Assembly: GCF_003018115.1 (NCBI RefSeq)
Contig: NZ_CP027457.1
Source: Escherichia coli
GTDB lineage: Bacteria > Pseudomonadota > Gammaproteobacteria > Enterobacterales > Enterobacteriaceae
Reading direction: 5' to 3' (one strand)
Length of the DNA stretch: 64,000 bases
Shown: positions 58,544-58,922 of the stretch, piece by piece
How positions within the stretch are numbered: the stretch's first letter is position 1
How the letters are laid out: each line of letters starts with the position of its first letter
Program-made: the position numbers and the translations under genes
Notes under the pieces: generated by a model
Databases searched by the model: none
Told to the model about the DNA's origin: nothing
The model's input: the letters and a program-made list of their open reading frames with translations, nothing else

Positions 58544-58893
58544 GTTCTTCTAGCGCAATAACCCTGAACGCCGGGCTTCGGTTAGTAAGGGTTTTTTTAT
58601 GCCCGCGATAAATAAACTCTCTATTCCACCATCATTATTCTCAGCGGTTGCAAGGCTTGAACGGTAAGAACAAGCAAACCCGACCACCATTTTGCTGTTC
58701 ATAGCCACTTGCTGGAAGTTAGCCGACCTCACTCATACTCACCGTTCAAAGCGTGCCCCCGTTTTACCCCTGCACATTTGTGAACGCCAGCAGAGTTTTT
58801 TATGCGATTGCAGATATGGAAAGCGGCTCGGAGAGAAAAGCAAAAGATGGAAAAGTTACAAAAAAAAATCGCGAGATACATCGCATAAAACAA

Positions 58894-58920
58894 CGCCACC
58901 CGAAGGTGGCGTGCTTTTAT
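58894..58920. terminator. Bidirectional intrinsic terminator just downstream of ytfP, between convergent ppa and ytfP
   Basis: CGCCACC-CGAA-GGTGGCG hairpin followed by TGCTTTTATT on the + strand and T-rich sequence on the - strand. Confidence 0.7.
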
Positions 58921-58922
58921 TA

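Follow-up and report, generated by a model that had tools for sequence, protein, structure and literature searches.

A probable decayed relic of the chpSB toxin–antitoxin module between ppa and ytfP in Escherichia coli

Described states of the ppa–ytfP locus

The chpSB module (chpBI/chpBK) of Escherichia coli K-12 belongs to the MazEF/PemIK family of toxin–antitoxin (TA) systems (Masuda et al. 1993, cited in PMC7167474). In the passages of Pastorello et al. 2013 (mBio, PMC3735183) that deal with its locus, chpBS is held there by 53%, esiB by 15%, and neither gene by 32% of 47 genomes. PCR surveys also routinely score chpBIK as variably present (e.g., PMC11059956), and reviews attribute to Fiedoruk et al. 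2015 an uneven distribution of type II TA systems over phylogroups.

Here we describe this locus in a window of E. coli DNA (the whole 64-kb stretch that was analysed). As far as those passages portray it, the esiB- and chpBS-negative state corresponds to that of our window, with ppa and ytfP adjacent, neither gene present, and a single short repeat of partial inverted symmetry (Pastorello et al. 2013, PMC3735183). The same passages give this third state only as the absence of both genes, whereas in our data it very probably represents a deleted chpSB relic, and the frequencies, estimated there from 47 genomes, are extended here to 5,426. The presence/absence polymorphism is already published; the detail of the relic may or may not be new and would be a minor refinement. 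Our literature search, which was of limited reach, found no published description of a chpB remnant.

Compared with the intact chpSB of K-12, the window has the same slot and orientation and still contains the stop codon of chpB, about 115 bp of its coding sequence, and the region upstream of chpS, but chpS is gone and chpB persists as a fragment of about 75% identity with a stop and a frameshift. A further comparison is offered by the chromosomal ccdO157 system, which has reportedly decayed in E. coli (Mine et al. 2009, Genetics; cited in PMC7167474); it is said to be likewise a type II TA system at a fixed intergenic slot, intact or degraded depending on the E. coli lineage. It belongs to the CcdAB family and lies at another locus, whereas the module considered here is MazEF-like and its antitoxin gene appears to have been lost entirely.

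Remnants of chpSB in the ppa–ytfP interval

The interval is bordered on the left by an intact ppa gene (inorganic diphosphatase, 176 aa; 58013..58543, + strand; ORF list), annotated by PGAP at the corresponding position in strain 2013C-4974 and in K-12. On the right lies an intact ytfP gene (gamma-glutamylcyclotransferase family, 113 aa; 58923..59264, − strand; ORF list and PGAP), with tamB (59267..63046, − strand) as its neighbour. The 379 bp in between (58544..58922) hold no ChpS- or ChpB-like ORF in any frame, and here the original prediction was exact, in its coordinates as well as in its agreement with the ORF list, which contains mechanical ORFs of 56–82 aa in the interval. Positions 58400–59000 are 100% identical to strain 2013C-4974 (NZ_CP027587.1) and are matched in 5,425 of 5,426 complete E. 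coli genomes; the identical interval of 2013C-4974 carries no PGAP annotation. An Rfam scan of 57600–59400 gave no match inside the interval at the E-value threshold, and its sole match was a sub-threshold S15-leader inside ppa (16.8 bits vs. a gathering score of 39.5). The promoter scan of 57700–59300 returned a single promoter-like site, located upstream of ppa, and none inside the interval. On the far side of ppa, the signal-peptide region of ytfQ (− strand, 57655–57685) has an extra 9-bp tandem unit, GCAGTCTCT being repeated; this yields MWKRLLVVSAVSAVSAAMSS vs. ...VSAVSAAMSS in K-12 and strain 2013C-4974, and a predicted YtfQ of 321 aa with the extra unit vs. 318 aa.

In K-12, chpSB occupies exactly the ppa–ytfP slot, in the order ppa(+), chpB(−), chpS(−), ytfP(−), as the original prediction had stated, and the two intervals are not identical. 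Using blastn and affine-gap global alignment, we recovered three K-12-matching blocks that are collinear and in the same orientation; a MAFFT global alignment against K-12 mis-placed the relic, and the other two methods were used instead. The first block (window 58400–58631, K-12 locus L001 1501–1734) has 97% identity and comprises the 3′ end and terminator of ppa together with the stop and last codons of chpB. The second (58626–58750, L001 1930–2056) has 72% identity and lies in the chpB interior, at coding nucleotides about 19–145. The third (58760–59000, L001 2369–2608) has 88% identity and takes in the chpS upstream region, the ytfP terminator, and the ytfP 3′ end.

Specifically, the chpB 3′ stub (stop and last codons, ...V E *; 58622..58631, − strand) matches K-12 1725–1734 at 10/10 positions. 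Beside it lies a chpB pseudogene fragment (58632..58750, − strand) that covers codons about 7–48 and contains an in-frame stop and a 1-bp indel. Its identity to K-12 chpB is 72.4% over 127 bp (blastn, E about 1e-13), and its local alignment score of 48 is about 28 sd above that of 1000 shuffles (mean 9.0, sd 1.4, max 15). At the protein level, ChpB residues 15–42 align to 58727..58644 (− strand) with 50% identity and an in-frame stop (tblastn, E = 0.002), and this match is syntenic. No other ChpB match with E < 0.1 occurs in the 64-kb window, and ChpS has no significant match there (best E = 0.19). These searches with K-12 ChpB and ChpS, a check that the original prediction had proposed for the full genome, revealed no intact copy in the 64 kb, and we rejected a location of chpSB elsewhere within the window. 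Among the chpB sequences compared, the fragment (about 115 bp) is closest to the Escherichia type (74–75%), those of other genera being far worse.

Two pieces of the K-12 sequence are missing. One, of about 195 bp (K-12 1735–1929), lies inside chpB at coding nucleotides about 146–340 and has CCACCA at both ends, and these flanks suggest a microhomology deletion. The other, of about 312 bp (K-12 2057–2368), spans the initial 18 nt of chpB, the whole of chpS, and about 49 bp on the upstream side; in its place the window has a junction or filler of 9 unalignable bases (58751..58759). Next to this junction is the orphaned chpS upstream (promoter-side) region (58760..58886, − strand), about 125 bp in length and part of the 88%-identity block. 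Coding nucleotides 1–18 and about 146–340 of chpB are deleted, an intact ChpB toxin ORF (116 aa, PemK/MazF family) is absent, and the window likewise has no intact ChpS antitoxin ORF (83 aa, upstream of and overlapping the toxin gene). What remains are collinear module fragments with a broken frame and deletions at the syntenic site between ppa and ytfP, oriented toward ppa like K-12 chpSB.

Terminator hairpins and insertions at the locus

On the ppa side, a terminator-like hairpin (58560..58600, + strand) is formed by an AACCCU...AGGGUU stem with an inner GCCG/CGGU stem, followed by U7. The z-score over 72 nt was not significant; the segment shares 97% identity with K-12, and parts of it are conserved at Citrobacter, Salmonella, and Raoultella loci. 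At the other end, a terminator scan and folds identified a bidirectional terminator hairpin of ytfP (tamAB-ytfP; 58887..58912), in which an 8-bp stem with 6 GC pairs (58893–58912) is accompanied by T-rich runs on both strands, 10 nt past the ytfP stop. Folds on this side gave z = −4.75 and −5.80, with 0/200 shuffles as stable, and a smaller hairpin lies beside the terminator at 58870–58885. The 26-bp ytfP terminator sequence is matched at 26/26 positions in several genera. The features on both sides are those of predicted intrinsic (Rho-independent) terminators. The original prediction described the interval as holding only terminator-like hairpins, and the hairpins are indeed real; "only" was mistaken, as 58613–58886 very probably is a decayed and internally deleted chpSB remnant.

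The ytfP terminator also contains a 15-bp core, CGCCACCCGAAGGTG (58894–58908), that is present at both junctions (attL and attR) of a P88-like prophage integrated in strain N50. The integrase region of this prophage is 98.9% identical to that of the P2-family phage P88 (Escherichia phage P88, KP063541 / NC_026014), and the P88 record begins at the same core. The core can be considered a putative attB site of a P2-family (P88-like) phage; it is shared with the N50 prophage junctions, and in the window the site is unoccupied. The N50 allele itself has the order ppa, a bgl-like operon (PTS IIABC, GH1 glycosidase, LicT), a partial relic, the prophage, and ytfP (L005 8562–13483 and L006 700–1790). 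At its right end, the ~36-kb prophage has ParM, a PIN-domain pair, and a hok/gef gene. The bgl-like PTS/GH1/licT operon takes the place of the relic's ppa-proximal part.

A B2 strain carries esiB at the ytfP hairpin, with a hairpin copy on either side of the insertion. In the single esiB locus that was read (L003), the esiB island sits on a relic allele, and from this one locus the published island appears to occur on a relic background. As a documented insertion point (esiB, P88-like prophage), the adjoining terminator hairpin makes the locus variable, and because it would serve as a recombination and integration hotspot, the locus is found in several states: chpSB, relic, relic with esiB, and relic with bgl-like operon and P88-like prophage.

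Distribution and history of the relic allele

In a population sample of 5,426 complete E. coli genomes, K-12-type chpB-chpS DNA was present in 3,098 (57%). The chpSB places numbered 3,101 in 3,100 genomes, with one per genome in all but one. The relic, called where at least 80% of segment 58613–58880 was present, was found in 2,319 genomes (43%), and esiB in 187/5,426. The original prediction of a strain-specific presence or absence of the TA module is borne out with respect to the polymorphism, while a state seen in 2,319 of 5,426 genomes is no peculiarity of one strain. Counts of chpSB and relic together reach 5,417; in essence a genome has either one state or the other, and nearly all chpSB-negative genomes have the relic. 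Relic genomes essentially have no second chpSB copy, which for the window strain beyond its 64 kb rests on these population counts. E. coli strain HH45 matches just 101 bp (17%) of K-12 chpB-chpS, within an annotated PemK/MazF-family toxin gene, and may have a further truncated or rearranged chpB allele.

We aligned four full-length relic alleles: those of the window, the B2 strain FDA strain Seattle 1946, E. coli SCPM-O-B-8794, and the E. albertii type strain NBRC 107761. The chpB 3′ stub and the junction of the second deletion are the same in all four, E. albertii included. This points to a single origin of the relic, which either dates back to roughly the E. coli/E. albertii split or was followed by transfer between both species. 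The chpB fragment is 82–96% identical between relic alleles and the chpS upstream segment 79–88%, with indels; this pattern, with no preferentially conserved segment, fits neutral decay. Even among E. coli relic alleles the interval differs by 8–20%. Some genomes (H54, H55) are matched by the relic query in its chpS upstream part only (58760–58880), as is typical of chpSB-carrying alleles, yet with 100% identity to the window where K-12 has about 88%, and this indicates recombination between chpSB and relic haplotypes.

Outgroups were scanned with YtfP, using one genome per species, which gave 80 loci. Intact chpSB at the same ytfP offset, with ChpB at 91–97% aa identity, was found in Escherichia sp. 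MOD1-EC7003, E. whittamii, sp. E1V33, and E. coli strain E69, all four being Escherichia-labelled representatives of the genome collection. At the same offset, with ChpB at 64–78% aa identity, it was also intact in Lelliottia sp., Enterobacter asburiae, Pseudocitrobacter, Kluyvera genomosp. 1, and strain RIT691. In three of these chpSB carriers (Lelliottia, Enterobacter asburiae, and a Pseudocitrobacter MAG), the sequence upstream of chpS aligns with window positions 58760–58912, and it is 64–68% alignable to 58760..58886. A truly empty gap of 100–170 bp was present at most Citrobacter, Klebsiella, and Enterobacter loci and at a Salmonella diarizonae locus. The slot holds other cargo in some genera (loci L013, L018, L019, L033, and L043). 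Citrobacter youngae and Salmonella arizonae carry Hcp-fused T6SS effectors there, Silvania has a methyl-accepting chemotaxis protein, and TonB-dependent receptors are found in Citrobacter gillenii and in Lelliottia, where the receptor occurs together with chpSB.

Our results very probably reflect a relic allele of chpSB (ChpBI/ChpBK, a MazEF/PemIK-family type II TA module) that was lost by two deletions and subsequent decay. We consider this a loss rather than a state that never gained the module because parts of the module, namely a chpB fragment, the stop of chpB, and the sequence upstream of chpS, remain in their original order. In this history, an ancestor would have carried chpS-chpB in the slot, transcribed toward ppa like in K-12. 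A deletion of about 195 bp between the CCACCA microhomologies would have removed coding nucleotides about 146–340 of chpB, and one of about 312 bp would have taken the chpB start, the entire chpS, and about 49 bp upstream. The leftover chpB stub, codons about 7–48, and chpS upstream region would then have decayed neutrally, while both predicted flanking terminators would have stayed functional. It is possible that the toxin was inactivated first, making loss of the antitoxin harmless; we infer this, the order of the two deletions, and an origin of the relic around the time of the E. coli/E. albertii split or earlier.

The opposite polarity, with a pristine ancestral empty site here and a gain of chpSB in the K-12 lineage, would be in line with the frequent horizontal acquisition of TA modules (PMC7167474) and with the short, chpSB-less ytfP–ppa gap (100–170 bp) of most other Enterobacteriaceae. 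It is nonetheless scarcely credible, and for the relic allele we regard it as refuted: the interval retains, in order, coding sequence from within chpB, the stop of this gene, and the region upstream of chpS, and the target of an insertion cannot contain fragments of the insert beforehand. Moreover, the truly empty gaps of other genera have nothing of what lies between the two terminators (58613–58880); this and the alignable upstream regions of chpSB carriers support 58613–58886 as part of the chpSB module, a remnant and not ancestral spacer. Hardly less improbable is that the retained sequence was kept for a new function, as an orphan chpS promoter/operator, a small RNA, or a small ORF. That the relic survives without full erasure in E. 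albertii as well as in about 43% of E. coli, and that the interval has mechanical ORFs, would speak for this, but the interval yields no Rfam match, the matching genome has no gene annotated there, and the sole promoter-like site lies upstream of ppa, outside the interval. Constraint on the retained chpS upstream region was also rejected, as this segment (79–88%, with indels) is no better conserved than the dead chpB fragment (82–96%).

More weight is due to a scenario in which a divergent chpSB variant gave rise to the relic, or another Escherichia species supplied it, rather than slow decay in place, with later spread by homologous recombination via the conserved flanks, although we consider it unlikely. 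Divergence along the interval is uneven, with about 75% identity of the chpB fragment to intact chpB, 85–94% in the chpS upstream region, and 86–97% on the ppa side, which is not what even, neutral decay of a K-12-like allele would produce. The unevenness calls for either later recombination that homogenised the flanks, a plausible cause, or a divergent chpB lineage as the source. The fragment is roughly equidistant from every Escherichia chpB examined, E. coli relic alleles differ from one another as noted above, recombinant chpSB-positive alleles with relic-type upstream sequence exist, and the relic also occurs in E. albertii; all of this favours such an origin. However, no intact chpB among the 80 loci is nearer to the relic than the Escherichia type, and an identity of about 75% could also result from neutral decay on one branch if the relic predates the divergence of E. 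coli and E. albertii. Deletion and decay of a resident chpSB module remains our preferred reading of the interval.

More speculatively, the two alleles (57%/43%) could form an old, possibly trans-species dimorphism of E. coli and E. albertii that is maintained at intermediate frequency through recombination and perhaps through balancing selection on carriage of the ChpB RNase, with the ultra-conserved ytfP hairpin as a family-wide docking site for phage and cargo; we hold this combined scenario to be rather doubtful.

For E. coli at large, chpSB-negativity would represent one old loss that has spread, and not repeated gain and loss, because essentially every chpSB-negative genome has the same relic. 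The finding is correct but ordinary and has little import beyond bookkeeping. Nonetheless, since the module was deleted and has decayed, the window strain would make neither the ChpB toxin, an endoribonuclease, nor the ChpS antitoxin. This is relevant to PCR surveys that score the presence of chpBIK and to the extrapolation of K-12 TA biology, including claims on persistence, stress, and phage defence, to other E. coli.
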